Shown: piece after piece, positions 3,617-61,677 of the stretch
Layout of the letters: every line of letters begins with the position of its first letter
Numbering within the stretch: position 1 is the stretch's first letter
Source: an uncultured Candidatus Saccharibacteria bacterium
GTDB lineage: Bacteria; Patescibacteriota; Minisyncoccia; Minisyncoccales; UBA5738
Direction of reading: 5' to 3'
Assembly: GCA_964603475.1 (NCBI GenBank)
Contig: CAZRVG010000002.1
Span: 9,923-73,922 of the forward strand
Length of the DNA: 64,000 nt
Made by a program: the position numbers and the translations under genes
Notes under the pieces: model-generated
Seen by the model: only the letters and a program-made list of their open reading frames with translations
Database searches by the model: none
What the model was told of the DNA's origin: nothing

Positions 3617-4207
3617 ATGGTTTATAATTCCGAAATTCATCATCGGAGATCAATAAGGTATGGAAAATATGATTATTCGCGGGACGGGGCTTATTTTATC
3701 ACGGTTTGCGCGCAGAATATGAAATGCGTTTTTGGAGAAATACAAAAAGGAGAAATGAAATTGAGTGGAGCGGGGGAAATGGTTGAATATTGGTGGCGGC
3801 AATTGCCGGAAAAGTTTCAAAATATACGGCTTGACGAATTCGCGGTGATGCCAAACCATTTTCACGGTATTTTGTGGATTGTAAATCGTAAGGGAGGTCT
3901 CCCGCGTTGTAGGGGCGACCTTTATGGTCGCCCGAGTTATGATTGTTCGAACGAGAGGAGGGCGGGTACAAGACCCGCCCCTACGAAAACACTTGGCAAC
4001 ATTGTTGGCGCGTTTAAATCGTTGATGACCAATGAATATATTCGAAATGTAAAGATGGGCAAATTCCCGCCGTTTGAAAAGTCAATTTGGCAGAGAAATT
4101 ATTGGGAGCATATCGTTCGCGATGACAAAGATTTAAACCGGATTCGCGAATATATCATCAACAACCCATTGAATTGGGAGTTGGACGAATTGTACCGCGC
4201 CGTGTAG
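3617..4207 (+). CDS. REP-associated tyrosine transposase (RAYT, IS200/Y1-like) carrying an in-frame REP doublet
   Basis: HUH motif MPNHFHGILWIV and C-terminal SIWQRNYWEHIVRD...IREYIINNP. Residues ~91-125 are encoded by REP hairpins. Confidence 0.85.
   Translation: MVYNSEIHHRRSIRYGKYDYSRDGAYFITVCAQNMKCVFGEIQKGEMKLSGAGEMVEYWWRQLPEKFQNIRLDEFAVMPNHFHGILWIVNRKGGLPRCRGDLYGRPSYDCSNERRAGTRPAPTKTLGNIVGAFKSLMTNEYIRNVKMGKFPPFEKSIWQRNYWEHIVRDDKDLNRIREYIINNPLNWELDELYRAV
3909..3984. repeat. REP doublet (REPIN-like) inside the RAYT coding sequence
   Basis: gtaggggcgacctttatggtcgccc (3909-3933) and gggcgggtacaagacccgcccctac (3960-3984), with GTAG heads pointing outward. Confidence 0.85.
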
Positions 4208-4297
4208 GGGCGACCTTTATGGTCGCCCGAATTTGAGGACGGTTGAAAAATAAAATGCGGGCACCCACAAGGGGTGCCTCTACGAATGTACGGGTGG
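4204..4297. repeat. REP cluster downstream of RAYT
   Basis: gtaggggcgacctttatggtcgccc (4204-4228, identical to 3909-3933), gggcacccacaaggggtgcctctac (4249-4273), and gggtggggtgcccctac (to 4297). Confidence 0.8.
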
Positions 4298-4729: not shown

Positions 4730-4803
4730 AGTTTGGGCAAGGTCGCACCTTGCCAATTATCCCTTGCTACGCTTCGGGATAATCGGCAAGGAACGACCTT
4801 GGG
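4730..4803 (+). repeat. 74-nt structured repeat, copy 1 (long form of the AAGGTCG...CGACCTT element)
   Basis: agtttgggcaaggtcgcaccttgccaattatcccttgctacgcttcgggataatcggcaaggaacgaccttggg. It differs from 5319-5392 at one position. Confidence 0.85.
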
Positions 4804-4810
4804 GACGCGA

Positions 4811-5305
4811 ATGCCGATACATTTGAATTATCAGGGGACGATTTGTGAAAAGTGCGGGGCGGAATTTATCGCCTGCGGCAAAAATTGCCAATGTCCGGCG
4901 TGCGGCCAAGCAACGGACGATTTTTGTGATTTTTGCGCCGCGACAATCGCGTCGATGAAAGACCACAAGCGGGTTTATGGCGCCTATTTTCCCGAAACAT
5001 GGTTTTCGGGATCGGTTGCCGACACAATCCAGCAAATCATTTTTGAGCTGTTTGATAATTTTGAGGCCGAAACTCCAAAAGATTTTTACTTGTTTGCCAT
5101 CGAGCATTTGGCGCAAATTAAATGGGAAGAAGGACAAGAGCATTTGGCGCCGCAGGCCGAGCAGATCGCGCTTGAAGTTTTTGAGATTTACAAGAGCGAT
5201 CCGGAGTTTCGCGGCGATAATTTAAAAACCAAACCAATTGATCCGAAACTGAAGGATATGAAAAGGGACCAATTATTTAATGGTTTACCAAATGATGACG
5301 AATGA
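4811..5305 (+). CDS. hypothetical protein with N-terminal zinc ribbon
   Basis: ATG 4811 sits just after the repeat. CEKCG...CQCPACG pairs of cysteines. No family recognised. Confidence 0.55.
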   Translation: MPIHLNYQGTICEKCGAEFIACGKNCQCPACGQATDDFCDFCAATIASMKDHKRVYGAYFPETWFSGSVADTIQQIIFELFDNFEAETPKDFYLFAIEHLAQIKWEEGQEHLAPQAEQIALEVFEIYKSDPEFRGDNLKTKPIDPKLKDMKRDQLFNGLPNDDE

Positions 5306-5318
5306 AAAATCAAAAGGC

Positions 5319-5392
5319 AGTTTGGGCAAGGTCGCACCTTTCCAATTATCCCTTGCTACGCTTCGGGATAATCGGCAAGGAACGACCTTGGG
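5319..5392 (+). repeat. 74-nt structured repeat, copy 2
   Basis: Direct repeat of 4730-4803 with 1 mismatch. Confidence 0.85.
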
Positions 5393-5583
5393 AATGCGAG
5401 GGGGTTGCCTTGAAAAGAGGGGATTTTTTTTATATGATGAGGGAAATAAAATAGTTTTCAATTGCCAGTTTGCATTGAGTTTTCAATGTATCAATGAATC
5501 AAACCAAATGCGGATTTGTATTTTGTTTGAAAATTGGACAATTGGTCATTCAATGAAAATTGAAAACTGAAAATTGAAAATTT

Positions 5584-6090
5584 ATGTTTTCAGCCGAAAA
5601 CATTGTTAAAGGGAAACTGGCGGAGGGTTTGGTGGAGCAGTTGTTAAAGGCAAGCGGTTGCCGGGTTTATCGCTTGGGCGCGGATGCCGCGCTGGAAAAC
5701 ATCGCGCAATTGGAAGACGAGTTTTCCAAAGACAGCGATTTGGGAAAAAAGATGGCGTCAATTCCTGATTTTGCCGTGATGGGATGCCGCGAAAAGCCGG
5801 TATTTGTGGAAGTGAAATTTCGCGCCGAGCCCGAATCGCTGGAAGAAGAATTGCTGTTAGAAAAAGACGCGCAAGAGAATTTTTGGAAGGCAAAAATCGT
5901 TTTGGTGACCACTAAAGAAAAGCCCTATTTTCGCGTGTTGACGCCGCCCTATTTTTCCAAAGAGAAACGCGACGGCTGGCCCATTCCGGTGGCAAACTGG
6001 AAGCCGTTGGAAAAGGATGAAGATTTGGGGTGCGGCAAAGATGTCATTAAAGAGTTTGAAGAATTGGCGGAGAAATACTACAATAAATAA
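5584..6090 (+). CDS. PD-(D/E)xK nuclease-fold protein (YraN/restriction-endonuclease-like)
   Basis: N-terminal GKLAEGLVEQLLKASGCRVYRLG, then IPDFAV ... VFVEVKFR (D...ExK arrangement). Confidence 0.55.
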   Translation: MFSAENIVKGKLAEGLVEQLLKASGCRVYRLGADAALENIAQLEDEFSKDSDLGKKMASIPDFAVMGCREKPVFVEVKFRAEPESLEEELLLEKDAQENFWKAKIVLVTTKEKPYFRVLTPPYFSKEKRDGWPIPVANWKPLEKDEDLGCGKDVIKEFEELAEKYYNK

Positions 6091-6198
6091 TTTTTAATTT
6101 GAAATTTTTAATTTTTAAACAATTTAAAAATTTAGAAATTTTTAAAGATTGAAACATTAAGAATTGTTTAAAAATTAAAAATTTCAAATTAAAAATTA
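6088..6198. repeat. perfect 37-bp inverted repeat with a 37-nt loop (AT-rich intergenic hairpin)
   Basis: Arm 6088-6124 taatttttaatttgaaatttttaatttttaaacaatt is the exact reverse complement of 6162-6198. Confidence 0.9.
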
Positions 6199-20635: not shown

Positions 20636-20707
20636 ACTGTGCAAAAATTGTGCAAGGTTTCACCTTGCAAGCTTGCAAGGTGAAACCTTGCACAATTTTT
20701 GCACAGT
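20636..20707. repeat. 72-bp perfect palindrome containing the CAAGGT-TTC-ACCTTG core
   Basis: Hand-checked: 20636-20671 is the exact reverse complement of 20672-20707. Confidence 0.9.
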
Positions 20708-20717
20708 TTATCAATTT

Positions 20718-21830
20718 ATGGAAGAAATATTTTTTTTGGCGATTGAAACTTCTTGCGATGATACCGCTATCGCGGTGATGCGTGCCGAAGAAGGGGGAGG
20801 CAAACTCAAAAAAATTGAGGCGGTTTCCAATATTGTTTCGTCGCAAGTCAAATTGCATGCCGAATATGGCGGAGTGTATCCTTCTTTGGCAAAGCGGGAG
20901 CATCAAAAAAATCTGCCCGTGGTTTTTGAAGACGCGGTCAAAGGTTTTGATTTGTCAAAATTAAAATTTATCGCGGTTACCCATGGCCCGGGGTTGGATC
21001 CGTGTTTGTGGACAGGGATTAATTTTGCCCAAGATTTGGCAAAAAAATATAATTTGCCGCTGGCGGGCGCCAATCATTTGGAAGCGCATTTTTTGGCGAA
21101 CCTGATAACTCTGGGAATCGGAGAAAAAGAATTTGAAAAAAATTATTTGCCGGCAATTTGCCTGGTGGTTTCGGGTGGCCACACGCTGTTATTTTTGGCA
21201 AACGCTATCGGCGGCTATCGGTTGTTGGGGCAAACCGTGGACGACGCGGCGGGCGAGTGCTTTGACAAATCCGCGCGCATTTTGGGCTTGAGCTATCCGG
21301 GCGGACCGGAAATCGCCAAACTCGCTTCTGCGCGGGTTAGACCCACGCAAACTTACAGGGGTCCAACCCCTGTCAAACTTACAGGGGTCCAACCCCTGCG
21401 GATTGAGCTTCCGCGGCCGATGATAAATCAGAAGAATTATAATTTCAGCTTTTCAGGATTGAAAACCGCGGTACTCTATGAAGTCCAAAAACGCGAACCA
21501 AAAGTTGCTCAATCCGATGAATACAAAATCGCGATGAGTTATGAAATCCAGCAGGCGATTGTTGATGTGCTGGTGAAAAAAACCGCGCGCGCGGCAAAAG
21601 AATTTGCCGGCAAGGCAATCATTATCGGCGGCGGCGTGAGCGCCAATTTGGCATTGCGCGAGGCGATGCAAAAGATGGCCGAGGAATTAGGAATTCAATT
21701 TTTGGCGCCGTCGGGGGATTTGTCAATGGATAACGCGGCGATGGCCGGAGTCGCCGGCTATTTTGCCTTTCGCCGCGGCGAAATCATCAAACCCGAAGAT
21801 CTCAAATCCCAGCCCAATTTAAGTTTGTAG
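20718..21830 (+). CDS. tsaD: tRNA N6-adenosine threonylcarbamoyltransferase
   Basis: LAIETSCDDTAIAV, GANHLEAH and SFSGLKTA motifs. ATG 20718 is preferred because the upstream ORF extension is palindrome-encoded. Confidence 0.9.
   Translation: MEEIFFLAIETSCDDTAIAVMRAEEGGGKLKKIEAVSNIVSSQVKLHAEYGGVYPSLAKREHQKNLPVVFEDAVKGFDLSKLKFIAVTHGPGLDPCLWTGINFAQDLAKKYNLPLAGANHLEAHFLANLITLGIGEKEFEKNYLPAICLVVSGGHTLLFLANAIGGYRLLGQTVDDAAGECFDKSARILGLSYPGGPEIAKLASARVRPTQTYRGPTPVKLTGVQPLRIELPRPMINQKNYNFSFSGLKTAVLYEVQKREPKVAQSDEYKIAMSYEIQQAIVDVLVKKTARAAKEFAGKAIIIGGGVSANLALREAMQKMAEELGIQFLAPSGDLSMDNAAMAGVAGYFAFRRGEIIKPEDLKSQPNLSL
21329..21399 (+). repeat. intragenic in-frame palindromic repeat block in tsaD
   Basis: tgcgcgggttagacccacgca plus two 26-nt tandem units caaacttacaggggtccaacccctg. 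Confidence 0.85.
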
Positions 21831-22235: not shown

Positions 22236-22275
22236 GCAAGGTTTCACCTTGCAATCTTGCAAGGTGAAACCTTGC
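22236..22275. repeat. CAAGGT-TTC-ACCTTG family palindrome
   Basis: gcaaggtttcaccttgcaa-tc-ttgcaaggtgaaaccttgc. Confidence 0.85.
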
Positions 22276-22312
22276 GTTTTGTTTGATTAAAGCCGATTTT
22301 TGCGGTAAAATT

Positions 22313-24662: not shown

Positions 24663-24746
24663 TGCCGAAGGTGGGAGTTGAACCCACACGAGGTTGCCCT
24701 CACAGCATTTTGAGTGCTGCGTGTATGCCAGTTTCACCACTTCGGC
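24663..24746 (-). tRNA. tRNA-Leu (anticodon CAA), class II with long variable arm
   Basis: The reverse complement is GCCGAAG...; anticodon stem CAGCA/UGCUG, loop CUCAAAA, T-loop GGTTCAACTCC. 84 nt. Confidence 0.9.
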
Positions 24747-25128: not shown

Positions 25129-25211
25129 GTAGGGGCGGGCTTTATGCCCGCCCGTATTTATCGGGCACAATAGGGCAACTACAATAGGACAACCACAAGG
25201 GTTGCCCCTGC
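25129..25211. repeat. REP doublet/cluster
   Basis: gtaggggcgggctttatgcccgccc (25129-25153) and ggacaaccacaagggttgcccctgc (25187-25211). Confidence 0.8.
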
Positions 25212-25234: not shown

Positions 25235-27379
25235 TTATTTGCATTCTTTGTTGGAGCACCTTACAAGCTTGCGCTTGGTTTCAACCATTAAACTGCCGCA
25301 TTTTTCGCATTTTTCGCCGGTGGGTTTGTCCCAGAGGGCGAAGTCGCAATCGGGGTAGGCCGAACAACCGTAGAAAATTTTGCGTTTCTTGGTGCGCTTT
25401 TCCACGATGTGGCCAGTGCCGCATTTGGGGCAGGGGATCTCCTTTTCAAACGCGGGCTTTTGGGGTTCCAGCGGTTCGGCGTGTTTGCATTCGGGGAATT
25501 TGGGGCAGGCCAAAAATTTGCCGAAGCGTCCCATTTTGATCACCAGATTGGCGCCGCACTTGGGGCAGATTTTGTCGGTGGCGATCGCGGTTTTGTTGGC
25601 CTTTTCAACTTCTTGGTATTTTTCTTCTAAATTTTTCGCGAACGGCTCATAAAATTCGCGCAAAACTTTTGTCCACTCGGCTTGTCCCTCGGCGATATCG
25701 TCAAATTCTTCCTCCATTTTGGCGGTAAAATCAATATCCACGATTTTTGGGAAATGTGCCACGAGCAAGTCATTGACCATTAGTCCGATCTCGGTGGGTT
25801 TTAGCGATTTTTTTTCGTCTTTTTCAATATAATTTCGCGTTTGAATGGTGGAGATAATCGGCGCGTAAGTGGAGGGGCGGCCGATGCCGTGGGCTTCCAT
25901 TGCTTTGATGAGCGTGGCTTCGTTGTAGCGCGCCGGCGGCTTGGTGAAATGCTGGTTGGCGTCAAGTTTGATAAATTCCAGCGGTTCGCCATCTTCCATT
26001 TTTGGCAAATCAAGCTCTTCAAATTTGGAGGGATAAACTTTTAAATAGCCGTCAAATTTCAATGTCTGGCCTGAAGCTCGAAATCCATAATTTGCGGGGG
26101 TTGCGCGGGTTAGACCCATGCAAGCTTGCGTGGGTCTAACCCGCGCAATATCTTCTGCGGCACATTGCGCGGAAATGTCCGCACTGATTGAATCAAAAAG
26201 CGCCGGGTTCATTTGGCTGGCGATAAATCTTTGCCAAATGAGTTCATAAAGTTTTGCTTGCGGCCGGGTGAGGTTTTTGTCGGTCAGCGCCATTTCGGGA
26301 GTTTGATCCGCGTATGCCGGGCGGATCGCCTCGTGAGCTTCTTGCGCGCCTTTGGATTTGGTTTTATAGGTTTTGAAATTCCCTGAATGATATTGGGCGC
26401 CATAAGTCTTGGTGATGAAATCCTTTGCCGCGGTTAAAGATTGAACCGACAAATTGAGCGAGTCGGTGCGGTGGTAAGTTATCAACCCCATTTCATATAG
26501 TTGTTGAGCGGTCATCATCGCGGCCTTGCCGGTCATTTTAAATCTTTGCCAGGCGGTTTGCTGCAAGGTTGAGGTGGTGAACGGCGGCAGGGGATTTTTG
26601 CGGGTTTCTTTTCTATCAATTTTTGCCACCGAATAAGCGGCGTTTTTTAAATTTTCTTCAATGGCGATGGCTTGATTTTCATCTTTTATTTCCAACTTAT
26701 CCAGCGTTTTGCCGTTGATTTTTGCCAGTCGCGCGGCAAATTCTTTTTTGGGGCCGTTTTTGGTGTTTTTTAGGTTTGCCAAAATTTCCCAATATTCTTC
26801 GGGATTGAAGGCCTCAATTTCCCGTTCGCGTTCGGCGATCAGGCGCACGGCCACGGATTGCACCCGTCCCGCTGATAATCCCTTAACGATCTTTTTCCAC
26901 AAAAACGGAGATAGCTTATAGCCCACAATGCGGTCCAAAATCCGCCGTGCCTGTTGAGCGTTAACCAAATCAATGTTGATTTCCCGCGGATTTTTCAGGG
27001 CTTCATCAATCGCGGTTTTGGTGATCTCATGAAATTCAATCCGCCGATAGAGCCTGCCTTCAACTTTTTTGGTCTTTGGCTTGCCCAGTTTCAACGCTTC
27101 AATTAAATGCCAAGCGATGGCTTCGCCCTCGCGATCCGGATCGGTGGAGATCAAAACCTCATCGGCCTTTTTGGTTTGCGCCTTCAACTCTTTTATCGTG
27201 CTTTTGCCTTTGGTCGTGATGGCGTATTTGGGAGCAAAATTATTTTCAATGTCCACGCCAAAAACAGTTCTGGGCAAGTCGCGCACATGGCCGTATGATG
27301 ATAAAATTTTATAATCGCTCCCTAAAAATTTTTGCAAAGTTTTCGCCTTGGTGGGCGATTCAACAATAATCAGCTTCAT
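25235..27379 (-). CDS. topA: DNA topoisomerase I (type IA)
   Basis: Toprim LIIVESPTKAKT, ITYHRTDS active-site region, three C-terminal CPKCG-type zinc ribbons. Confidence 0.95.
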   Translation of the reverse strand: MKLIIVESPTKAKTLQKFLGSDYKILSSYGHVRDLPRTVFGVDIENNFAPKYAITTKGKSTIKELKAQTKKADEVLISTDPDREGEAIAWHLIEALKLGKPKTKKVEGRLYRRIEFHEITKTAIDEALKNPREINIDLVNAQQARRILDRIVGYKLSPFLWKKIVKGLSAGRVQSVAVRLIAEREREIEAFNPEEYWEILANLKNTKNGPKKEFAARLAKINGKTLDKLEIKDENQAIAIEENLKNAAYSVAKIDRKETRKNPLPPFTTSTLQQTAWQRFKMTGKAAMMTAQQLYEMGLITYHRTDSLNLSVQSLTAAKDFITKTYGAQYHSGNFKTYKTKSKGAQEAHEAIRPAYADQTPEMALTDKNLTRPQAKLYELIWQRFIASQMNPALFDSISADISAQCAAEDIARVRPTQACMGLTRATPANYGFRASGQTLKFDGYLKVYPSKFEELDLPKMEDGEPLEFIKLDANQHFTKPPARYNEATLIKAMEAHGIGRPSTYAPIISTIQTRNYIEKDEKKSLKPTEIGLMVNDLLVAHFPKIVDIDFTAKMEEEFDDIAEGQAEWTKVLREFYEPFAKNLEEKYQEVEKANKTAIATDKICPKCGANLVIKMGRFGKFLACPKFPECKHAEPLEPQKPAFEKEIPCPKCGTGHIVEKRTKKRKIFYGCSAYPDCDFALWDKPTGEKCEKCGSLMVETKRKLVRCSNKECK
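26103..26146. repeat. intragenic 44-bp palindrome in topA (GCGCGGGTTAGACCC family)
   Basis: gcgcgggttagacccatgcaag|cttgcgtgggtctaacccgcgc, with one mismatch between the arms. Confidence 0.9.
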
Positions 27380-27481
27380 AAATTTCTAAATTTCTAATTT
27401 CTAATGCCAAAATAAATTCCAAAATTTTGAAATTTTAAATTTATTAATTTATTCAAAAATTAGAAATTAGTAATTTCGGAA

Positions 27482-28345
27482 TTAATTCAAACAGTATTCT
27501 CCGTTGCCCAGATTGCGCACGAGGTTGTTTATCTCCATCACGGGGATCGCGCTCATCACGATTTGCGCGGGGAGTTTTGTCGCCAAAATTATTTTATCAA
27601 TATTTAACGCGCCGTCTTTTAAAATGTCCAAAATTTTTTGCTCTTCGGGGGAAACATTTCGCGCGGCAATTTTTGCCGGCGCGGCGGCCAATCCCAATTC
27701 ATCCAAAATATCTTGAGCCGCGGTTGCGGGCTTGCCGCCGTTTTTTAACAGCCAATTGCAGCCGGCCGAGTTTGCCGCGTAAATTGATCCGGGAACCGCG
27801 AAAACCGGCTTGTGCTGTTTTCTGCCCCATTCGGCGGTGATTAGCGATCCGGACTTTTCCTTGGCTTCAATGACCGCCACGGCCAAAGATAATCCGGCGA
27901 TAATGCGGTTTCGCTGGGGAAAAGAATAATAGGTGGATTTAAATCCCGGCTCGTATTCGCTAATCAAACAACCGCCAGTATCAACTATATTTTGCGCCAA
28001 GTCAAGATTTGCTTGCGGGAAAAACGATTCCTTGTCAAGCCCGGCGCCGATGACGCCGCAAGTCAATCCGCCGCATTCAAGGGCGGTTTGGTGGGCGATA
28101 GTGTCAATGCCGGGCGCCATTCCCGAAATAATGCAAACGCCGGCGCGGAACAGTCCCGCGGCGATGTCATGCGCGGCTTGCTTGCCATAAGTTGACGGCA
28201 CCCGCGCCCCGACGATCGCCACGCATGGCGCGGCAATATTTATGTTGCCGCGGTAATATATTTGCTTGGGCCGTGAGGGGATGGTGCGCAAACAATTGGG
28301 AAATTCAATATCTCCTTCAACAATTTTTTGGATTTCGTATTCCAT
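27482..28345 (-). CDS. dprA: DNA-processing protein DprA
   Basis: VAIVGARVPSTYG and GMAPGIDTIAHQ motifs. Confidence 0.9.
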   Translation of the reverse strand: MEYEIQKIVEGDIEFPNCLRTIPSRPKQIYYRGNINIAAPCVAIVGARVPSTYGKQAAHDIAAGLFRAGVCIISGMAPGIDTIAHQTALECGGLTCGVIGAGLDKESFFPQANLDLAQNIVDTGGCLISEYEPGFKSTYYSFPQRNRIIAGLSLAVAVIEAKEKSGSLITAEWGRKQHKPVFAVPGSIYAANSAGCNWLLKNGGKPATAAQDILDELGLAAAPAKIAARNVSPEEQKILDILKDGALNIDKIILATKLPAQIVMSAIPVMEINNLVRNLGNGEYCLN

Positions 28346-29115: not shown

Positions 29116-29146
29116 AATAAAGCCATTATAGCATAATTCTCATTAG

Positions 29147-29177
29147 AATTTGGTCAAGGTTTCACCTTGACCAAATT
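29147..29177. repeat. CAAGGT-TTC-ACCTTG family hairpin (14-bp stem, 3-nt loop)
   Basis: aatttggtcaaggt-ttc-accttgaccaaatt. Confidence 0.85.
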
Positions 29178-29197
29178 TGCGGTTGGGGAAAACTTGT

Positions 29198-30367: not shown

Positions 30368-30444
30368 GTAGGGGCGGGCTTTATGCCCGCCCTTTTGGGT
30401 CAAAATGCGGATGGGACGCGGGCGGGCATAAAGCCCGCCCCTAC
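30368..30444. repeat. REP doublet (REPIN-like)
   Basis: gtaggggcgggctttatgcccgccc (30368-30392) and gggcgggcataaagcccgcccctac (30420-30444). Confidence 0.85.
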
Positions 30445-30494
30445 AAACGCGGTGCGCGGGCAAACGCGGTGCGCGGGCAAACGCGGTGCGCGGG
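30444..30494 (+). repeat. 17-bp tandem repeat x3
   Basis: caaacgcggtgcgcggg repeated three times, immediately abutting the REP doublet. Confidence 0.9.
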
Positions 30495-30590
30495 CAAATA
30501 ATCCTTGCTATTGCGGAGGGGGGATTTTTTTGGTATGATGGGGGCATAGCAAAGATAATTTTGGGTAAGTTTTAATAATAATTTCATTCT

Positions 30591-31148: not shown

Positions 31149-31296
31149 AATTAGAAATTCTAAATTCCAAATCCTAAATTCTAAATAAATCCAAAATCTA
31201 AAATTCAAAACAAATTTATTTTTTGTTTTGGTCTTTAAAATTTGAGTTTTGGATTTGTTTGGGATTTAGATATTAGAATTTAGGATTTGGGAAAAT

Positions 31297-36276: not shown

Positions 36277-36756
36277 ATGAATATGAAAATCAATATTGAG
36301 ATTAACAATTTAAGCGAAGAAGAGATTGACTCGCGGCTGGCCAAAATTGCGGCCGCGTTGGTTATTGAAAACGAGACAAAAGAAACGGATTATCTCGGGG
36401 CTGAAGCCTCGATTGCTTTTGTGGGAGAACGAGAGATGATTCAGGTGAATAAAAAATATCGCGGCAAGGATGAGGCTACTGATGTCCTATCATTTGCTTA
36501 TGGCGATAACGCCGCCGGATTTACGGTCTCGGGCGGCATAAGGATGCTTGGCGAATTGGTGGTTTGTTCCAAACGAGTGAGAAAAGATGCCAAGGATAGG
36601 GGAAAATCTTTTGAAGAAGAAATGATATGGGCGGTCATCCACGGCATATTGCATTTGCTGGGATATAATCATGAAAAAGGCGGGGAAGAAAGCAAGACAA
36701 TGAGGGGAAAAGAGAAAGACTACCTGGATAAATTAAAAATTGAAAAATCAAAATGA
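36277..36756 (+). CDS. ybeY: rRNA maturation RNase YbeY
   Basis: ATDVLSF and HGILHLLGYNHE zinc-binding motifs. Confidence 0.9.
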   Translation: MNMKINIEINNLSEEEIDSRLAKIAAALVIENETKETDYLGAEASIAFVGEREMIQVNKKYRGKDEATDVLSFAYGDNAAGFTVSGGIRMLGELVVCSKRVRKDAKDRGKSFEEEMIWAVIHGILHLLGYNHEKGGEESKTMRGKEKDYLDKLKIEKSK

Positions 36757-36858
36757 AAAATGACAATGTAAAATTTAAAATTAAAAACGCAATTATATTT
36801 TTTAATTTTTATCTGTCATTTTGATTTTTGATATTTACATTTTACATTTTTAGGCTTT

Positions 36859-38085: not shown

Positions 38086-38233
38086 ATTTAAAAATCAAAA
38101 TCAAATGATAAATGATAAAAAAAATCAAAATTAAAAATCAAATTTTAAAACGGAATTCTTGATATTTAGTTTGATTTTAAATTTTAAATTTTGATTTTGT
38201 TTATCATTGGATTTTAAAATTTGATTTAATAGA

Positions 38234-39163: not shown

Positions 39164-39181
39164 TAAAAAAGCTCCAATAAT

Positions 39182-39294
39182 CAAATTCCAAGCTCCAAAT
39201 AATATTCAATATTAAAAATTATAATATTTAAAAATTAGATTTTGATTATTGGAATTTACTTTGGGATTTGGGGCTTGATGCTTGGAATTTAATT
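39182..39294. repeat. AT-rich MITE-like inverted-repeat element, copy 2
   Basis: Shares both termini and a 32-nt identical block with 444-555. Confidence 0.6.
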
Positions 39295-43513: not shown

Positions 43514-44296
43514 ATGAAAATATGCGGATTGCAAAAAACAACGTTGATTGATTATCCGGGGAAGGTGGCGTGCACGGTGTTTACCGCGGGGTGTAATTTT
43601 CGGTGTCCATGGTGCTATTCCAAGGAATTGGTTTTGCCCGAATTGATCGCTCAACAGCCCGAAATCCCCGAAAGCGAGATTTTGGAATTTTTAAAAGAAA
43701 AGCAAGGTCTTTTGGAGGGCGTGGTTTTGTGCGGGGGAGAGCCCACGCTGCATCCTGATTTGCCCCAATTTTGCAAAAAGATAAAAGATTTGGGGTTTGA
43801 GGTGAAATTGGATTCCAACGGCTCCAATCCAAAAATGCTAAAAGAATTGATTGACCAAAAATTGATTGACTATGTGGCAATGGACATCAAACTTCCCAAA
43901 GAAAGATACGCCACTCTCTTTTGCGCGGGTCAGACCCACGCAAATTCAGCGCGGGTCAGACCCGCGCAATCTGCACAATCTGCGCGGGTTCGGGGGATAA
44001 GTGTTGATGATATAGAGGAAAGCATTAAAATTTTGAAAAATTCCGACATCGGCTTTGAATTTCGCACCACCTGCGCGCCGACGGTTCACACGCCCGAAGA
44101 TTTTGAAATTATGGCCAAATGGATCGGGCAAGACATTCCCGGCCGATCGCCAAAATACTTTTTGCAGAATTTCAAACCCGGACGAAACATCGACCCCAAG
44201 TTTGAAGACCTAAAACCCTTTGACAACGAATTTTTCACCGCCGCCCTTGCCAAAATCAAACCCTACGTTCCCGACTGCCACTTGCGCGACCTGTGA
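43514..44296 (+). CDS. nrdG: anaerobic ribonucleoside-triphosphate reductase activating protein (radical SAM)
   Basis: TLIDYPGKVACTVFTAGCNFRCPWCYS (CxxxCxxC) and GVVLCGGEPT. Confidence 0.9.
   Translation: MKICGLQKTTLIDYPGKVACTVFTAGCNFRCPWCYSKELVLPELIAQQPEIPESEILEFLKEKQGLLEGVVLCGGEPTLHPDLPQFCKKIKDLGFEVKLDSNGSNPKMLKELIDQKLIDYVAMDIKLPKERYATLFCAGQTHANSARVRPAQSAQSARVRGISVDDIEESIKILKNSDIGFEFRTTCAPTVHTPEDFEIMAKWIGQDIPGRSPKYFLQNFKPGRNIDPKFEDLKPFDNEFFTAALAKIKPYVPDCHLRDL
43923..43995 (+). repeat. intragenic in-frame repeat block in nrdG (GCGCGGGTCAGACCC family, about three degenerate copies)
   Basis: gcgcgggtcagacccacgca ... gcgcgggtcagacccgcgca ... tgcgcgggttcgggg. Confidence 0.85.
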
Positions 44297-47637: not shown

Positions 47638-47691
47638 ATTGGGCAAGGTTTCACCTTGACCAAATTGGTCAAGGTGAAACTTTGCCCAATT
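47637..47691. repeat. CAAGGT-TTC-ACCTTG family palindrome (55 bp, 1 mismatch)
   Basis: aattgggcaaggtttcaccttgaccaa|ttggtcaaggtgaaactttgcccaatt. Confidence 0.85.
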
Positions 47692-47728: not shown

Positions 47729-49156
47729 ATGGAAAAAATTAAAAACAAAAAAAACAACAAGGACGAGATAGCGGGAAAAAAAATAAAACGAAAGAGCGCC
47801 GCAAAAAAAGGCGCTACGAGAAAGATTGAGCGAACGAAAATCAAATCCTTGCCAAAAATTGATAAGGCGTGGGTGGTGGCGGTGAATATGGGCTACGGGC
47901 ATCAGCGCACCGCGCATCCGTTGCGGTCTTTTGCGTATAAGAGAGAAATCATCAATGCCAATGATTATGACGGTATTCCCGAACAGGACAAAAAAATTTG
48001 GAAAGACAGCCGCAGATTCTATGAAGCGATTTCCCGCTTCAAGCGCATTCCGTTAATCGGCAAGTCAATGTTTTCTCTATATGACAATTTTTTCCAGAAA
48101 ATAGTTGAGTTTTATCCTAAAAAAGATTTATCCCGGGCGCCGCTCTTAACTCGGCAAACTTACGCGTTGATAAAAAGCGGTTGGGGCAGGCATTTCGTGG
48201 AAAAATTGAAAACCAAGAATTTGCCGCTGATAACCACTTTTTTTATTCCGGCATTTATGGCCGAAGAATTCGATTATCCGGGAAAAATTTATCTAGTTGT
48301 TTGCGATGCCGATGTTTCGCGACAATGGGCGCCCGAATATCCAATATCTACGCGCATCAATTATTGCGCCCCCAATAAGCGCGTGGCGGAAAGATTGAAG
48401 CTCTACGGCGTGCCCAAAAAACAGATATTTTTAACCGGCTACCCTTTGCCGGAAAGCAATATCGCAACAACTCGAAACGGCGGCATTAAGGAGATGAACG
48501 CGGTCAAAGCGGATTTGGGGCGGCGTTTGACGAACTTGGATCCGGTTGGCGCCTATTCGGAAAAGTATTGCAGTTTTGTTAAAAGCGCATTGTGCGCTTT
48601 GCCCAAGAAATCCCGTCGTGTGCTGACTTTGATGTTTTCCGTCGGCGGCGCGGGCGCGCAAAAAGAGATCGGTATGGAGATTATGCGCCAAATGTCGCCA
48701 CGCGTAAAAAACGGTAGAATAAAAGTTATTATTTCGGTGGGTACCAATCGGACGATGAAGGATTTTTACCAAAGAGAAGCGCAGTTTTTGGGTCTTGGAC
48801 GAAATCAAAATCTGGAAATTTTATTTGAAAAAGATATTAAAAATTATTTTAATTCTTTTAATAAAGCCTTGCGCCAAACCGATATTCTATGGACCAAGCC
48901 CAGCGAGCTTTCTTTTTATTCAGCATTGGGGTTGCCGATTATTGTGGCTCCGCCCATCGGATCGCAGGAAGATTTCAACAAAAGCTGGCTTTTGCGTTCC
49001 GGTTTTGGCATTGAACAGGGGAATTTGTGCTGTATCAACGAATGGCTTGATGATTGGCTGGATAACGGCTATTTAGCCGAAGCGGCGATGGAAGGATTTA
49101 TCGAGGGCGAAAAATTGGGCACAACCAACATCAAAAACCTCGTCTTTAATAAATGA
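47729..49156 (+). CDS. putative GT-B glycosyltransferase (MGDG synthase/UgtP-like)
   Basis: N-terminal VNMGYGHQRTA and C-terminal LWTKPSELSFYSALGLPIIVAPPIGSQEDFN resemble GT28-type enzymes. Assignment is tentative. Confidence 0.45.
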   Translation: MEKIKNKKNNKDEIAGKKIKRKSAAKKGATRKIERTKIKSLPKIDKAWVVAVNMGYGHQRTAHPLRSFAYKREIINANDYDGIPEQDKKIWKDSRRFYEAISRFKRIPLIGKSMFSLYDNFFQKIVEFYPKKDLSRAPLLTRQTYALIKSGWGRHFVEKLKTKNLPLITTFFIPAFMAEEFDYPGKIYLVVCDADVSRQWAPEYPISTRINYCAPNKRVAERLKLYGVPKKQIFLTGYPLPESNIATTRNGGIKEMNAVKADLGRRLTNLDPVGAYSEKYCSFVKSALCALPKKSRRVLTLMFSVGGAGAQKEIGMEIMRQMSPRVKNGRIKVIISVGTNRTMKDFYQREAQFLGLGRNQNLEILFEKDIKNYFNSFNKALRQTDILWTKPSELSFYSALGLPIIVAPPIGSQEDFNKSWLLRSGFGIEQGNLCCINEWLDDWLDNGYLAEAAMEGFIEGEKLGTTNIKNLVFNK

Positions 49157-49272
49157 CCAAATTTCCAATTACCAATTTCCAATAAATGACCGAATGCCAA
49201 AATTTTAAAATTATGAAATTTTTGAATTTTGGAATTTATTCTGAAATTGGAAATTGGGAATTCTGAAATTTT
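49152..49272. repeat. 121-nt AT-rich element, copy 1 (copy 2 at 52642-52762)
   Basis: aatgaccaaatttccaattaccaatttccaataaatgac...ggaatttatt...attggaaattgg...gaaatttt is shared nearly base-for-base. Confidence 0.75.
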
Positions 49273-49276
49273 TATT

Positions 49277-50185
49277 ATGGTTTGGCTTTTTGTAGCGCTA
49301 GGCGCCTATTTTTTATTGGCGGGCGCCGCGCTGATTGATAAATTTTTATTGGCGGGAAAGCTGGATGATCCCAAAATATACGCCTTTTATGTGGGTATAT
49401 TGAGTTCGGCGGCGTTTTTGCTTTTGCCGTTTGGTTTTTGGGGCGATCCGCCGCCTTTGGTTTTTGTTTTCGGTATTGCCGCGGGGGCGAGCCAAATTTT
49501 TGGCTGCTATTTTTATTTTTCGGCGCTCAAAAAAATGGAGGCGGCGCGGGCGGTGCCGGCGGTGGGCAGCTTGGTGCCGATTGCCGCGTTTTTTTTGACC
49601 GCTTTGGCTTCCGGCGGGGAGGCGGTGCTCACCCAAAATGAGCTGGCCGGATTTTTTTTGCTGATTGCCGGCGGCTGGATGATTACGGCCAAGGGGTTTT
49701 TGCCGTCTAAAATCGGCTTGCGCTCCATTTTCTTGGCGGCATTTTTGTTTGCTTCAAACGTGGTTTTGGCAAAGTTGGTTTATTTGCAAATGCCGTTTTT
49801 GAAAGGGTTTTTGCTGATGGCTTTTGGATCCACCACCGCGGCGATGGGTTTTCTTTTTTTCAAATCGGTGCGCCGGGCGGTGTTTTCCCTCAAAGGGGGG
49901 CACAAACAAGGGCAGCCGAACCTTTTGTTTTTTTTCGGGCAGACAATGGGAGGAAGCGCGTTTTTACTGCAAAGCTTGGCGGTGTCTTTGGCGCCGCAGG
50001 CAAATGTGCCGGTGATTAACGCGCTGGCCGGCGCGCAATATGTCTTCATCTTCATTTTCTCGCTTTTCTTGGCAAAACACTTTCCTAAAGTTTTTATCCG
50101 AAAAAAATCGCCGACGGTGCTGGCGCAAAAAATCATCGCCATTCTGCTTATTATCATCGGTTTGGTGATTTTTGCGGCGGATTAA
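49277..50185 (+). CDS. DMT/EamA-like transporter
   Basis: About ten TM segments in a two-fold repeat arrangement. Confidence 0.65.
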   Translation: MVWLFVALGAYFLLAGAALIDKFLLAGKLDDPKIYAFYVGILSSAAFLLLPFGFWGDPPPLVFVFGIAAGASQIFGCYFYFSALKKMEAARAVPAVGSLVPIAAFFLTALASGGEAVLTQNELAGFFLLIAGGWMITAKGFLPSKIGLRSIFLAAFLFASNVVLAKLVYLQMPFLKGFLLMAFGSTTAAMGFLFFKSVRRAVFSLKGGHKQGQPNLLFFFGQTMGGSAFLLQSLAVSLAPQANVPVINALAGAQYVFIFIFSLFLAKHFPKVFIRKKSPTVLAQKIIAILLIIIGLVIFAAD

Positions 50186-51213: not shown

Positions 51214-51318
51214 TTCAAAATTCAAAGGGCAAAATTCAAAAGTATAAGCTAAAAATTAAAAAGTTTTAACTTTCACTTTTAACTTTTGAATTTTAACTTT
51301 TGACTTAATTTTGTGTCT

Positions 51319-52641: not shown

Positions 52642-52762
52642 AATGACCAAATTTCCAATTACCAATTTCCAATAAATGACAAAATGTTAAAATTTTAAAA
52701 TTATGGAATTTTTTAATTCTGGAATTTATTTTGACATTGGAAATTGGAAATTTTGAAATTTT
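52642..52762. repeat. 121-nt AT-rich element, copy 2
   Basis: See 49152-49272. Confidence 0.75.
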
Positions 52763-52766
52763 ATCT

Positions 52767-55481
52767 ATGATGAATCAACCTCCTAATTTTACTCACAAGG
52801 CACAGGAAGCGATAATCTATGCCCAAGACCTGGCGCGCGAAAAAGGCCAACAGCAGATAGACGCCTTGCATTTGCTGGCGGCGCTTTTGGGGCAGGAAAA
52901 AAGCTTGATTGCCAATTTGCTCGAACGTTTGGGCGTGGATTTGGAAAATCTGAAAAAACGGGCGCTGGCGGCCTTGAATCGATTGCCGGTGATTGCCGCG
53001 CCGCAAGCTTTCGGCCAGTTTTATCTAACTCAAGATATGGCCAAGATATTGGAAAGGGCGCGCGAGGAAGCCAACAAATTCGGCGATGAATTTATTTCCG
53101 TGGAGCATCTTTTTTTGGCGCTTTTGGGCATGGGCACCAAGGCCCGGGAGATTTTGGACAAAGCTGAATTTATCCGTTCGGACGGGGCTTTTGCCACGCC
53201 GGAAACCGGCGCGCTTGATTATGAGGCGGTGCTCAAAGAATTGATGAAAATTCGCGGCGGCCAGCGCATCACCGATCCCGAGCCGGAGTCAAAATATCAA
53301 GTGATTGAAAAATATACCCGCAACCTTACGCTGATGGCGCGCCAAGGCAAAATGGATCCGGTCATCGGGCGCGAAAACGAAATCCGGCGCTTGATGCAAG
53401 TTTTGAGCCGGCGCACCAAAAACAATCCGGTTTTGATCGGCGAGGCCGGCGTGGGCAAAACCGCGATTGTTGAAGGATTGGTGCAGCGCATCGCGGCGGG
53501 AAACGCGCCGGAAAGCTTGCGGGATAAAGAAATCATTTCGCTTGATCTGGGGGCGCTGATTGCCGGCACCAAATACCGCGGCGAATTTGAAGACCGCATT
53601 AAGGCGCTTTTGCGCGAAATGGACAGTGCTGCGGGAAGATATGTTTTCTTCATTGACGAATTGCACACTTTGGTGGGCGCGGGTGCCGCCGACGGCACCA
53701 TTGATGCGTCAAACTTGTTGAAGCCGGCATTGGCGCGCGGAGAATTGAAAGCCATCGGCGCCACAACTTTGAAAGAATATCAAAAATACATTGAAAAGGA
53801 TCCGGCCTTGGAACGCCGCTTCCAGCCGGTGTTTGTTTCCGAACCGTCGATAGGGGACGCTAAATTGATTTTGATGGGATTAAAAGAAAAATATGAACTG
53901 CATCACGGCGTAAAAATTGATGAAAAAGGCTTGGAAGCGTGCGTGGAATTGTCCTCGCGTTACATTCCCGACAGATTTTTGCCCGACAAGGCGGTTGATT
54001 TAATGGATGAGGCGATGAGCTCTCTGCGTTTGGATATTGAATCCGAACCTTCGGAGGTGGAAAAATTGCGCAAGGAATTTCAAAAATTACAGGTCGAATA
54101 TGAAGCGATCAAAAACGATAAGGATGAAAATAGCATCAGACGATTGAAAGCTATCAGCCGCGAATTGGCCGATATCGGCGAAAAGTTAAAATCCGTGGAA
54201 GCCAAATGGCATTCGGAAAGGGATACCATTACGAAAATCAAAACCCTGAAGAAACAACTGGAAGATTACCGCTTTGAGGTTGAACAGGAAGAAGCGCGCG
54301 CCAATTTGCAGCGGGTGGCGGAATTGAAATACGGCAAAATTCCCGAACTTGTCAAAGAACTGAAAGCCGCGGAAAGAAAGCTGGCGCGCTTTCAAAAAAC
54401 CCGGCCGATCCTCAAAGAAAAAGTGACCGAAGAAGATGTTGCCAATGTTGTTTCGCGCTGGACGGGCATTCCGGTGACGCGCTTAATGGAGGAGGAGGCG
54501 CGCAAACTGCGCGCGTTGGAAGATATTTTAAACCGCCGCGTTATCGGGCAGGAAGCGGCGATCGTGGCAATTGCCAACGCGATTCGGCGCGCGCGCGCCG
54601 GCATTGCCGAAGAAAATCGGCCGCTGGGATCGTTTATGTTTTTGGGACCCACGGGCGTGGGCAAAACCGAAACCGCCAAAGCGCTGGCCGAGTTTTTGTT
54701 CAATGATGAAAACGCGCTGGTGCGCTTGGATATGTCCGAATATATGGAAAAGCACACGGTGTCGCGGATATTGGGATCGCCTCCCGGCTATGTGGGATAT
54801 GAAGAAGGGGGACAGCTCACCGAGAAGATCCGCCGCCGCCCATATTCGGTGATCTTGCTTGATGAGATTGAAAAAGCGCATCCGGAAGTGTTCAATATCC
54901 TATTGCAGATTTTGGAGGATGGGAGGTTGACGGACGCCAAGGGACGCACGGCTTCTTTTAAAAACGCGATTTTGATTATGACTTCCAATATTGGATCAGA
55001 CATTATTGCCAAAGAAACGGCCTTGGGATTTTCGCCCAAAAACGGGCAAGAGGCCGATAAAGAAAAAACGCATGATAAAGTGATGGCGGTGTTGAAAGAA
55101 TCTTTCCGCCCCGAGTTTTTAAACCGCGTGGACGAGATTGTAATCTTTAACTATTTGAGCAGTCTGCAGATCAAAAAGATTGTTGATTTGGAATTGCAGA
55201 AAGTCGACAAGCGTCTGCGAGCCAAAGACATTCGAATTTGCGTGACCGATGCCGCCAAGGAAATTATCGCCCAGCGGGGATTTGACGCCAATTTGGGCGC
55301 CCGTCCTCTGCGCCGCGTGATCCAAAAGTTGGTTTTGGACGCTTTGGCCTTGCAAATCGTTTCCGGCGAGGTTAAAGAAGGTGATCGTGTTTTGGTTGAT
55401 GTTGAAGGCGGCGAGATTGCCGTTAAGCCGCCGGTTAAAGTTATTGCCAAATCGCGCAAAGCGGCAAAAACCCGAGTATGA
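52767..55481 (+). CDS. clpB: ATP-dependent chaperone ClpB
   Basis: Clp N domain, two AAA modules ([16 protein letters not shown]), and a long coiled-coil M-domain. Confidence 0.95.
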
Positions 55482-56234: not shown

Positions 56235-56300
56235 GCATTGCTTGCAAAGTTTGCATAGGTGCCACCTATGCAAGTTCAGCCCCCCGCCAAACTTATAGGA

Positions 56301-56392
56301 TGTTTCGCCCCGCAGTAGAAATTCGGCGCGCCATGGCGCAACCAAGAAAGCCGAATTTACACTGCGGGGCATACCCGAAAGGTGCAATGGAT
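56301..56392 (+). repeat. 92-bp direct repeat, left copy (flanks the R-M island)
   Basis: Identical to 61347-61438 except at one base. Contains a 20-bp-stem hairpin ccccgcagtagaaattcggc/gccgaatttacactgcgggg. Confidence 0.9.
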
Positions 56393-56407
56393 CTTGCGCG
56401 ATAGGTT

Positions 56408-56450
56408 TCAGAGGGTTAGACCCTCTGAATTTTTGACCCTCTGAATTTTT
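56408..56450. repeat. intergenic member of the GGTTAGACC hairpin family with a partial tandem duplication
   Basis: tcagagggt-tag-accctctga, then accctctgaattttt duplicated. Confidence 0.7.
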
Positions 56451-61315: not shown

Positions 61316-61346
61316 TTTTAAAGCGAAAGCGGATTATTGATGGGGT

Positions 61347-61438
61347 GTTTCGCCCCGCAGTAGAAATTCGGCGCGCCATGGCGCAACCAAGAAAGCCGAA
61401 TTTACACTGCGGGGCATACCCGAAAGGTGGAATGGATT
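61347..61438 (+). repeat. 92-bp direct repeat, right copy
   Basis: See 56301-56392. Confidence 0.9.
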
Positions 61439-61627
61439 TTGAGCTTATGGGGCGTAAAGGTTGGAATTTTTTCAAAAGTTTGCATAGGTGACACCTATGC
61501 AAACTTTTTTTGGCGGGCGGGCGGGGTTTTGGCGGGGGCATATTTTGATTGCGCGTGCTTTGTGATTTATAATGAATTTGCGGCGGGTGAAACCTTGAAA
61601 TTAAATAAATTGCGGTAAGGCGGAAAT

Positions 61628-61677
61628 ATGGCAAGGTTTTGCCTTGACCTAGTTTGGTCAAGGTGAAACCTTGCCAT
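61628..61677. repeat. CAAGGT...ACCTTG family palindrome (degenerate)
   Basis: atggcaaggttttgccttgacc...ggtcaaggtgaaaccttgccat. Confidence 0.75.

Follow-up and report, generated by a model that had tools for sequence, protein, structure and literature searches.

We analyzed a 64,000-nucleotide stretch of contig CAZRVG010000002.1 (hereafter the window) from an uncultured Candidatus Saccharibacteria bacterium, in which the gene for topoisomerase I (topA) contains a long palindrome that is translated as part of the enzyme. Source names of homologues, such as Candidatus Paceibacterota, mark the organism as one of the Patescibacteria. Our preferred explanation, to which we assign a probability of about 0.7, is that this palindrome is an inverted dimer of a dispersed hairpin of the repetitive extragenic palindromic (REP) type, resembling the REP doublets known as REPINs, and that it has spread by a hairpin-dependent process and is translated as a by-product within a permissive loop of the protein.

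An inverted hairpin dimer translated within topA

The two 22-nt arms of the palindrome occupy window positions 26103-26124 and 26125-26146 and read gcgcgggttagacccatgcaag and cttgcgtgggtctaacccgcgc, with a single mismatch (T26119 vs G26130), exactly as quoted in an earlier reading of the bare sequence (the original prediction). Two additional base pairs on each side (TT...AA) extend the structure to 48 bp, of which the 44 bp noted earlier are the core. The repeating unit is 23 nt long, TTG-CGCG-GGT-TAG-ACC-CGCG-CAA, and each arm of the palindrome is itself a hairpin. Pairing between the two units of the topA copy leaves one mismatch and pairing within them leaves three, so the dimer is the better-kept structure, as it likewise is in REPINs. 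The dimer folds as one hairpin of ~22 bp. Folded as single-stranded DNA, the 60-nt stretch around it has -28.2 kcal/mol on one strand (z = -9.4) and -26.4 kcal/mol on the other (z = -9.2), and as topA sense-strand RNA it reaches -40.3 kcal/mol (z = -9.3). The 22-mer arm has four matches in the window at up to three mismatches, compared with 0.00 expected from 100 shuffles. The palindrome does not have the form of an intrinsic terminator, as its sense-strand tail (CCCCCGCAAATT) is without a T-run and the antisense strand gives only a weak pattern match. An Rfam scan of the whole window returned nothing above gathering score except two tRNAs, and gave no match for the palindrome.

The topA gene on the minus strand is intact, and the Toprim acidic residues and active-site Tyr302 of its product fall in invariant alignment columns. 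As had been proposed, the palindrome is translated through in frame, giving ...DIARVRPTQACMGLTRATPA... (also quoted as ...AAEDIARVRPTQACMGLTRATPANY...) within the peptide stretch ...DIARVRPTQACMGLTR.... In an alignment of 60 homologues, the window protein has 25 residues where the closest insert-free orthologues have the 6 of the xGNDxT loop, and is thus 19 aa longer at this site. In an AlphaFold2 model (mean predicted local distance difference test score, pLDDT, 81.8) the insert lies at a β-hairpin tip between strands 393-406 and 430-442, with pLDDT <50 at residues 410-425, and is thus predicted to be a disordered surface loop. In the alignment, residues A419 and G420 of the E. coli enzyme bracket the insert site, a position that we take, from the published domain boundaries, to be in domain II, and solved TopA structures are without residues there. 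The suggestion that the insert would be a loop in domain II/III agrees with this placement. We consider the insert to be probably neutral for TopA activity.

The 714-aa protein is found again in an independent Logan assembly (P0001), where it differs by two substitutions, neither of them in the insert, and the insert is therefore not an assembly artifact. An intron or intein was also rejected, since the segment is too short, in frame and stop-free, and its flanks align directly to orthologues.

The hairpin family in the window and in relatives

The same hairpins occur in two other genes of the window. In tsaD, one GCGC-type unit (21329-21351) is followed by two ACAG-type units (21353-21377 and 21379-21401; ACAG-GGGT-CCA-ACCC-CTGT). 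The GCGC-type unit is identical over 22 nt to the topA unit read on the sense strand, including the stem mismatch (ACGC). An nrdG-like gene contains two full units (43921-43943 and 43947-43969) and a truncated one (43982-43996). Both full units have the loop TCAGA in place of TTAGA, and the nrdG unit compared with that of topA shares the ACGC mismatch and differs at one loop base. The three genes are mutually unrelated in sequence, lie 5-22 kb apart and all have intact open reading frames. With further members in intergenic DNA (Table 1), these copies bear out the proposal that a dispersed palindromic repeat family has been inserted and translated in topA. It had also been stated that the first arm uses the same frame as the copies in tsaD and nrdG; this is true of tsaD and of the second nrdG unit (ARVRPAQ) but not of the first nrdG unit, which reads CAGQTHA.

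Within the window the core GGGTYMRACCC occurs 8 times, with 0.16 occurrences expected, and 20 hairpins, compared with 0.74 in shuffles, combine a GGT-N3-ACC top with a stem of 8 bp or more. Seven of these 20, the topA copy and six others, are intragenic and in frame, in ~57 kb of coding DNA. The 13 extragenic hairpins lie mostly 2-80 nt downstream of a stop codon, several as dimers followed by T-runs; T-runs are present at the relatives at 20674, 22258, 47665 and 56403. One of them, a perfect 72-bp palindrome, has the same CAA-GC-TTG junction as the topA dimer and is flanked by A/T runs; judged from these runs it is probably a bidirectional terminator. It sits between a BcrAD/BadFG-type ATPase gene and tsaD, and sister copies of its unit are found at 22236-22276, 29146-29178, 47639-47689 and 61632-61675.

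Translation of the units uses four or more frames (ARVRPTQ, RGSDPR, AGQTHA and GLTRA), so that no particular peptide is selected and a function at the peptide level is rejected. In frame-3 copies the loop is always TCAGA, which avoids the TAG stop that TTAGA would give. This pattern of frames and loops points to filtering for open frames rather than to selection of a peptide.

We next consider covariation among 33 aligned units, in which the way of collecting predetermined the four top pairs, except in the units of L007 (one of the loci fetched from relatives). The aligned units have paired TTG...CAA feet and neither a GTAG nor a CGTC tag, and 90.6% of cells are paired. Double-sided changes number 55 cells against 17.9 +/- 3.5 in shuffles, and none of 500 shuffles reached 55. 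Four stem positions switch among GC, AU, CG and UA under a constant GGGT/ACCC top. Within each genome the resident variant recurs at several loci, and orthologous sites across genomes hold different variants, a distribution that, as read from these alignments, indicates concerted evolution or replacement and not passive vertical decay.

The presence/absence polymorphism expected among TopA orthologues was observed. The closest insert-free proteins (P0003-P0005 and P0007-P0013; 80-85% identical) have the 6-aa loop, and related hairpin dimers occupy the same site in P0002, P0006, P0014 and P0026, so related TopA proteins do not share a segment of one length. The topA stem is GCGCGGG/CCCGCGC in the window, GCGGGGG/CCCCCGC in L008 and GCGGAGG/CCTCCGC in L007, where the two units are in direct and not inverted orientation. 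The site is empty in L009 and L010 (85% identical TopA), and in the more distant L012, L013 and L014 the loop codes for other hairpins. At the position where tsaD of the window has GCGC- and ACAG-types, tsaD of L009 has AAAA-GGGT-CSG-ACCC-TTTT units, a variant also found in intergenic DNA of the same contig. Most nrdG orthologues are 236-239 aa long and without an insert, while that of L026 has a direct pair of GCGT-type and that of L027 an inverted pair of ACAG-type. Besides the topA dimer of the window, inverted dimers are present in L008, L020-L022 and L027, and direct pairs in tsaD, nrdG, L007 and L026.

For TopA, a neighbor-joining tree was computed from the alignment without the insert columns and bootstrapped with 200 replicates. 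Insert-bearing proteins formed a monophyletic group in none of these. The empty P0005 and the filled P0006 paired in 100% of replicates, and P0001, P0002 and P0003 (two filled, one empty) grouped in 87.5%. The xGNDxT loop is common to empty alleles in both major clades, and precise loss therefore cannot regenerate the empty alleles. On this tree the topA site would need at least three acquisitions or allelic transfers.

A metagenome scan showed that the 21-mer of the topA unit recurs in low-GC contigs, as inverted dimers in frame in a miaB-like (SCAGLTRAKLRGSDPR) and a uvrC-like (CAGQTHAKKMRGSDPR) open reading frame and as single copies after stop codons. Viral contigs scanned with two unit patterns gave zero matches and thus no sign of a phage vector. 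Among GTDB representative genomes, the 21-mer GCGCGGGTYAGACCCRYGCAA gave six matches only, in GC-rich Proteobacteria, with the lineage of the window not among them. Most of these matches lie near the 3′ ends of genes in a single gammaproteobacterial lineage, and the identical 21-mer hairpin (CC-GCGCGGGTCAGACCCACGCAA-nTATTGA) stands at gene 3′ ends in L001, L003-L006, L023 and L025 of a gammaproteobacterial lineage with ~56% GC, in one example overlapping the last codons of dxs. The gammaproteobacterial 21-mer could be due to convergence, a shared REP family or horizontal spread.

Probable mobility of the hairpins, precedents and rival explanations

One gene of the window specifies a REP-associated tyrosine transposase (RAYT). 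Against NCBIfam NF047646 (cut-off 80) the protein reaches 63 bits, or 74 bits once the insert that it carries is taken out; it also matches the TnpA_REP structure PDB 4ER8 with E = 5e-3, and its homologues carry the name RayT from JGI. The inverted pair of GTAG-tagged REPs read in frame within this gene has a signature, VGAPLVGA...RAGTRPAPT, that recurs in most of 54 aligned RAYT homologues from several phyla and was confirmed at the DNA level in one Thermodesulfovibrionia contig. We set aside the possibility that this embedded pair is new, as REP pairs in frame inside tnpA_REP genes are a published trait of subclass 2.4 (Quentin et al. 2018, PMC6006769). The pair does show that the lineage tolerates translated REPs; in subclass 2.4 the REPs lie in the transposase gene itself, whereas the topA case concerns housekeeping genes and untagged hairpins. 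Another GTAG-REP is found at the RAYT stop codon (4204-4228), and the window has 11 in all (GTAG-GGGCGNNN-loop-NNNCGCCC). Several form inverted pairs in the manner of REPINs (e.g. 30368/30444), and the unpaired ones are all on the plus strand 1-80 nt after stop codons, one of them directly after the tsaD stop. The stem of one GTAG-REP (GCGGGT...ACCCGC) is nearly that of the topA unit. Beside the REP pair 30368-30444, three tandem copies of a 17-nt unit (AAACGCGGTGCGCGGGC) occupy 30441-30500.

The presence in the window of a RAYT with its own GTAG-REPs makes hairpin-dependent single-strand transposition the most plausible mode of spread. We envisage that units of the pattern TTG-N4-GGGT-N3-ACCC-N4-CAA are dispersed in this Paceibacterota lineage and live mainly after genes, where their position and T-runs suggest that they serve as terminators or 3′-end stabilizers. 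Copies within genes would survive only if they are in frame, stop-free and in a permissive surface loop. The topA dimer would simply be translated, its peptide being a by-product that extends the loop without meaning. Spread or exchange within the genome would occur through a process that needs the folded single-strand hairpin, most likely single-strand cut-and-paste or copying by a RAYT-type Y1/HUH transposase, with gene conversion or template switching between copies as an alternative or addition. Recurrence at the same site may have any of three causes: permissive positions may be rare, a hairpin already present may be targeted, or alleles may recombine. No target-site duplication or target motif was found on comparing filled and empty topA and nrdG sites, including the empty nrdG site of L029. 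The element consists of hairpins alone and is not a miniature inverted-repeat transposable element, and the lack of a duplication at filled sites is as expected for Y1 transposases.

Translated palindromes of this kind have precedents, and the topA palindrome adds a case to a phenomenon already on record, selfish palindromic DNA that is translated, and is not a topoisomerase-specific device. Di Nocera et al. (2013, PMC3733652) described intragenic REP monomers and dimers with GTAG or CGTC tags, the dimers encoding ~20-30 aa. Their REPs resemble the topA element in being hairpin units of 20-40 nt, often in inverted dimers, with most copies just downstream of genes and a minority in frame within genes that often serve replication, repair or RNA modification, as here. 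The 23-nt unit falls within the size range of a short dispersed imperfect palindrome and the topA dimer is an inverted doublet that folds as one long hairpin; the topA copy and six others depart from the extragenic location of REPs, for which the same survey provides published exceptions. Unlike those REPs, the topA unit is tagless and has a GGGT-N3-ACCC top and TTG/CAA foot as its hallmark, its host belongs to the Patescibacteria (candidate phyla radiation, CPR), a group outside that survey, and across related genomes different subfamilies reoccupy identical codon-level sites. This subfamily swapping at fixed orthologous sites is what the case adds to its precedents. Full-text literature searches turned up no description of REP-type elements from Patescibacteria.

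The classic translated selfish palindromes are the Rickettsia palindromic elements (RPEs; Ogata et al. 2000, 2002, as summarized in PMC10969869 and PMC3733652). They too are palindromic DNA inserted in frame in housekeeping genes, translated and predicted to be fold-compatible at the protein surface (PMC10969869), and in the window topA, tsaD and nrdG are intact and AlphaFold places the TopA insert in a disordered loop tip. The main RPE families are ~100-150 bp long (~30-50 aa), in contrast to the 23-nt units, 48-bp dimer and 19 added residues described here, and they occur in a different phylum; the distinction drawn here is one of length and host. RPE-4 and RPE-6 are CGTC-type REPs (PMC3733652), which the topA element is not. 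REPINs (Bertels and Rainey 2011, PMC3116915; RAYT structure PDB 4ER8) share with the topA dimer the inverted doublet that evolves as an entity and folds as one long hairpin in a host that encodes a RAYT, and with the topA family a within-genome population with a dominant sequence and no target-site duplications. They differ in being described as extragenic, and the topA doublet has a spacer of 2 nt only and the window RAYT is tied to the other, GTAG-tagged family. A looser resemblance exists to small GC-rich hairpins dispersed in AT-rich genomes, mostly after genes and now and then inside coding or rRNA sequence, such as SPRITE of pneumococcus and the GC clusters or double-hairpin elements of fungal mitochondria. 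SPRITE is listed as a mobile terminator-like hairpin (PMC10969869).

Several observations weigh against mobile hairpins. The topA-type unit has neither of the tags that mark the published REP superfamilies, and in the 64 kb seen the RAYT is flanked by, and contains, GTAG-type REPs and not topA-type units. A tblastn search of the fetched loci found no RAYT beside topA-type units either, so that mobilization by a RAYT is something we infer. Neither a transposition event nor an excision footprint was seen, and no polymorphism within a species; both strains compared bear the insert, and the 90% protein clusters in which alleles without it were sought have 1-2 members each, all insert-bearing. The patchy distribution at the same site could have arisen without repeated insertion if related lineages, which are probably competent, exchanged alleles by homologous recombination, and the stem covariation can arise without selection through template switching in quasi-palindromes. 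Finally, the material comprises 64 kb of this genome and fragments of relatives.

The original prediction had drawn attention to the juxtaposition of a cruciform-capable palindrome with the enzyme that relaxes negative supercoils. As a cis-element of topA, the palindrome could be a supercoil-sensing cruciform or hairpin, or an mRNA structure that tunes translation or decay, in feedback on its own gene. We regard such a role as quite improbable in spite of the great stability of the structure (-28 kcal/mol as DNA, -40 kcal/mol as sense RNA), the other hairpins in the same TopA loop of the distant L012, L013 and L014, and the report that E. coli REPs are gyrase targets (cited in PMC3733652). Because identical units stand in tsaD, nrdG, miaB-like and uvrC-like genes and in intergenic DNA, and because the nearest TopA relatives (80-85% identical) do without any insert, a functional link between cruciform and topoisomerase finds no support. 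Moreover, the direct orientation of the units in the L007 orthologue abolishes the long cruciform, and in L015 the same loop is filled by AT-rich repeats that form no hairpin. It is also unlikely that the hairpins are immobile products of local duplication, inversion and template switching in length-variable loops, with a likeness that stems from a shared mutational process and base composition. This would suit the fact that the sites are hypervariable loops in many lineages, the arrays of two to three units with a 25-26 nt period that suggest local duplication, and the compensated stems that quasi-palindrome template switching yields without selection. It does not fit the identity of topA and tsaD units over 22 nt including the ACGC mismatch, with the nrdG unit one loop base off, in unrelated genes, nor the same 21-mer in yet other genes of other low-GC contigs, nor the 8 to 20 hairpins observed where shuffles contain 0 to 0.7.

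We are similarly doubtful that the unit is a selected genome-wide signal, be it a protein- or RNA-binding hairpin for termination or processing or a signal of the DNA-uptake type in Patescibacteria with natural competence, with intragenic copies kept because they are useful rather than selfish. Uptake sequences are fixed, highly over-represented words of ~9-12 nt that do not depend on a hairpin, whereas the stems here differ between subfamilies and vary with compensation, only GGGT/ACCC being constant. The conserved GGGT/ACCC top and TTG/CAA foot over a covarying middle do suggest recognition of a folded motif, extragenic copies lie just after stop codons, several with T-runs, and comEC and dprA are present in the region. 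The intragenic copies, however, have no sense-strand T-run, are dispensable in close relatives and are of low density (7 of 20 in the ~57 kb of coding DNA). A signal role may still apply to the extragenic copies, but it leaves the dispensable intragenic ones unexplained. An assembly or sequencing artifact, such as a chimeric inverted junction, can be practically dismissed: although amplification or assembly errors can create palindromes, the same 714-aa protein was recovered in an independent assembly, at least four further assemblies of different origin contain related inserts and the reading frame is intact.

Returning to REPIN-like spread, a stronger version of it is possible, which we put forward tentatively. 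The hairpins may be a living, structure-defined population, and not fossil insertions, that repeatedly re-targets the same codon-level sites in essential genes of gene-dense CPR genomes. Disordered loops would serve as heritable landing pads or "safe havens" for single-strand hairpin elements, and subfamilies would be swapped by RAYT-type transposition or hairpin-templated conversion.

Other repeats of the window and biological meaning

Repeats of other classes are also found in the window. A Type III restriction-modification pair (Mod 56607-58547, Res 58544-61315) is bracketed by 105-nt direct repeats (56295-56399 and 61340-61444) that are 95% identical. Each of them folds into a long stem (CCCCGCAGT...ACTGCGGGG) and is adjoined by a hairpin (GCATAGGTG-N-CACCTATGC), and the region looks like an inserted island. 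A second set of direct repeats, 81 nt long and 96% identical (4730-4810 and 5319-5399), flanks a 164-aa Cys-rich open reading frame (4811-5305) that has no Pfam match; each begins with the hairpin GGCAAGGT-CGC-ACCTTGCC. The tRNA gene at 24663-24746, between DUF134 and topA, has 98-100% nucleotide identity to relatives over 78-90 bp, and the protein genes that flank it are only ~80% identical to the same relatives.

Long inverted repeats, rich in AT, make up most intergenic regions; their arms measure 37-58 nt and their motifs recur with a period of ~8 nt (AAATTCCA, AAATCCTA...). One of them lies directly upstream of topA. They may be promoter regions or another repeat class. Pairs of AT-rich intergenic repeats, 80-128 nt long, 78-89% identical and kilobases apart (49152-49279 and 52642-52769; 427-555 and 39165-39294), indicate at least one additional class of dispersed repeat. 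In other Patescibacteria lineages, AT-rich periodic repeats and not GC hairpins occupy the TopA loop (L015:5001-7151) and the TsaD loop (L012:10600-11637). Their translations are NPKSEIRNPKQIQNSKSQIPN and TKIKNQKLKIKNIK, and the repeats look similar to the AT-rich ones in intergenic DNA. Hence these same loops come to hold translated copies of both intergenic repeat classes.

Table 1. Positions of topA, the hairpin units, the RAYT gene and associated repeats in the window.
Feature	Position	Strand	Description
RAYT (TnpA_REP) gene	3617..4207	+	HUH motif NHFHG, YWEH tyrosine motif
GTAG-REP pair in RAYT gene	3909..3984		Inverted pair (3909-3933 +, 3960-3984 -), in frame, between HUH and Tyr motifs
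GTAG-REPs	3909, 3984, 4204, 4308, 14222, 14286, 15320, 21827, 25129, 30368, 30444
72-bp palindrome	20636..20707		Perfect, intergenic; inverted dimer of sister unit TTGCAAGGT-NNN-ACCTTGCAA
tsaD	20718..21830	+	370 aa from MEEIFF
Hairpin units in tsaD	21329..21401	+	Three tandem units, in frame, read as SARVRPTQTYRGPTPVKLTGVQPLR
GTAG-REP after topA	25129..25153	+	GTAGGGGCGGGCTTTATGCCCGCCC, 82 nt downstream of topA stop
topA	25235..27379	-	714 aa, intact; type IA enzyme, domains Toprim, Topoisom_bac, Zn_ribbon_Top1
TopA codons 405-429	26093..26167	-	QCAAEDIARVRPTQACMGLTRATPA, in place of 6-aa xGNDxT loop
48-bp palindrome	26101..26148		Inverted dimer of hairpin unit, centre AAGCTT
Unit A	26101..26123		TTGCGCGGGTTAGACCCATGCAA; folded alone, stem with two internal mismatches
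Unit B	26126..26148		TTGCGTGGGTCTAACCCGCGCAA; opposite orientation, joined to unit A by GC
AT-rich inverted repeats	6088-6198, 27378-27486, 31155-31288, 36730-36842, 38092-38227, 49167-49262, 51219-51306		Intergenic
nrdG-like gene	43514..44296	+	Radical-SAM activase, 260 aa
Hairpin units in nrdG-like gene	43921..43996	+	Two full units and one truncated, in frame, read as CAGQTHANSARVRPAQSAQSARVRG
Intergenic same-core hairpin	56403..56433	+	CAGA-GGGT-TAG-ACCC-TCTG, then T-run; terminator-like

The topA palindrome reveals no new regulatory principle for topoisomerase I. Its meaning is that even ~1-Mb, 90%-coding genomes of Patescibacteria carry populations of REP-type hairpins together with a RAYT, and that, with little intergenic room, these hairpins persist inside essential genes (topA, tsaD, nrdG, miaB, uvrC) in disordered loops. 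For annotators, this explains odd low-complexity inserts in CPR proteins (ARVRPTQ, RGSDPR, GLTRA, RGSTPV...), which should not be taken as functional motifs. For the study of mobile DNA, subfamily swapping at fixed sites offers a tractable natural system in which targeting of existing hairpins can be set against targeting of sites. If the hairpins do form a population that re-targets these sites, REPIN-like replicators would extend from extragenic DNA to coding sequence as a regular habitat in streamlined genomes.

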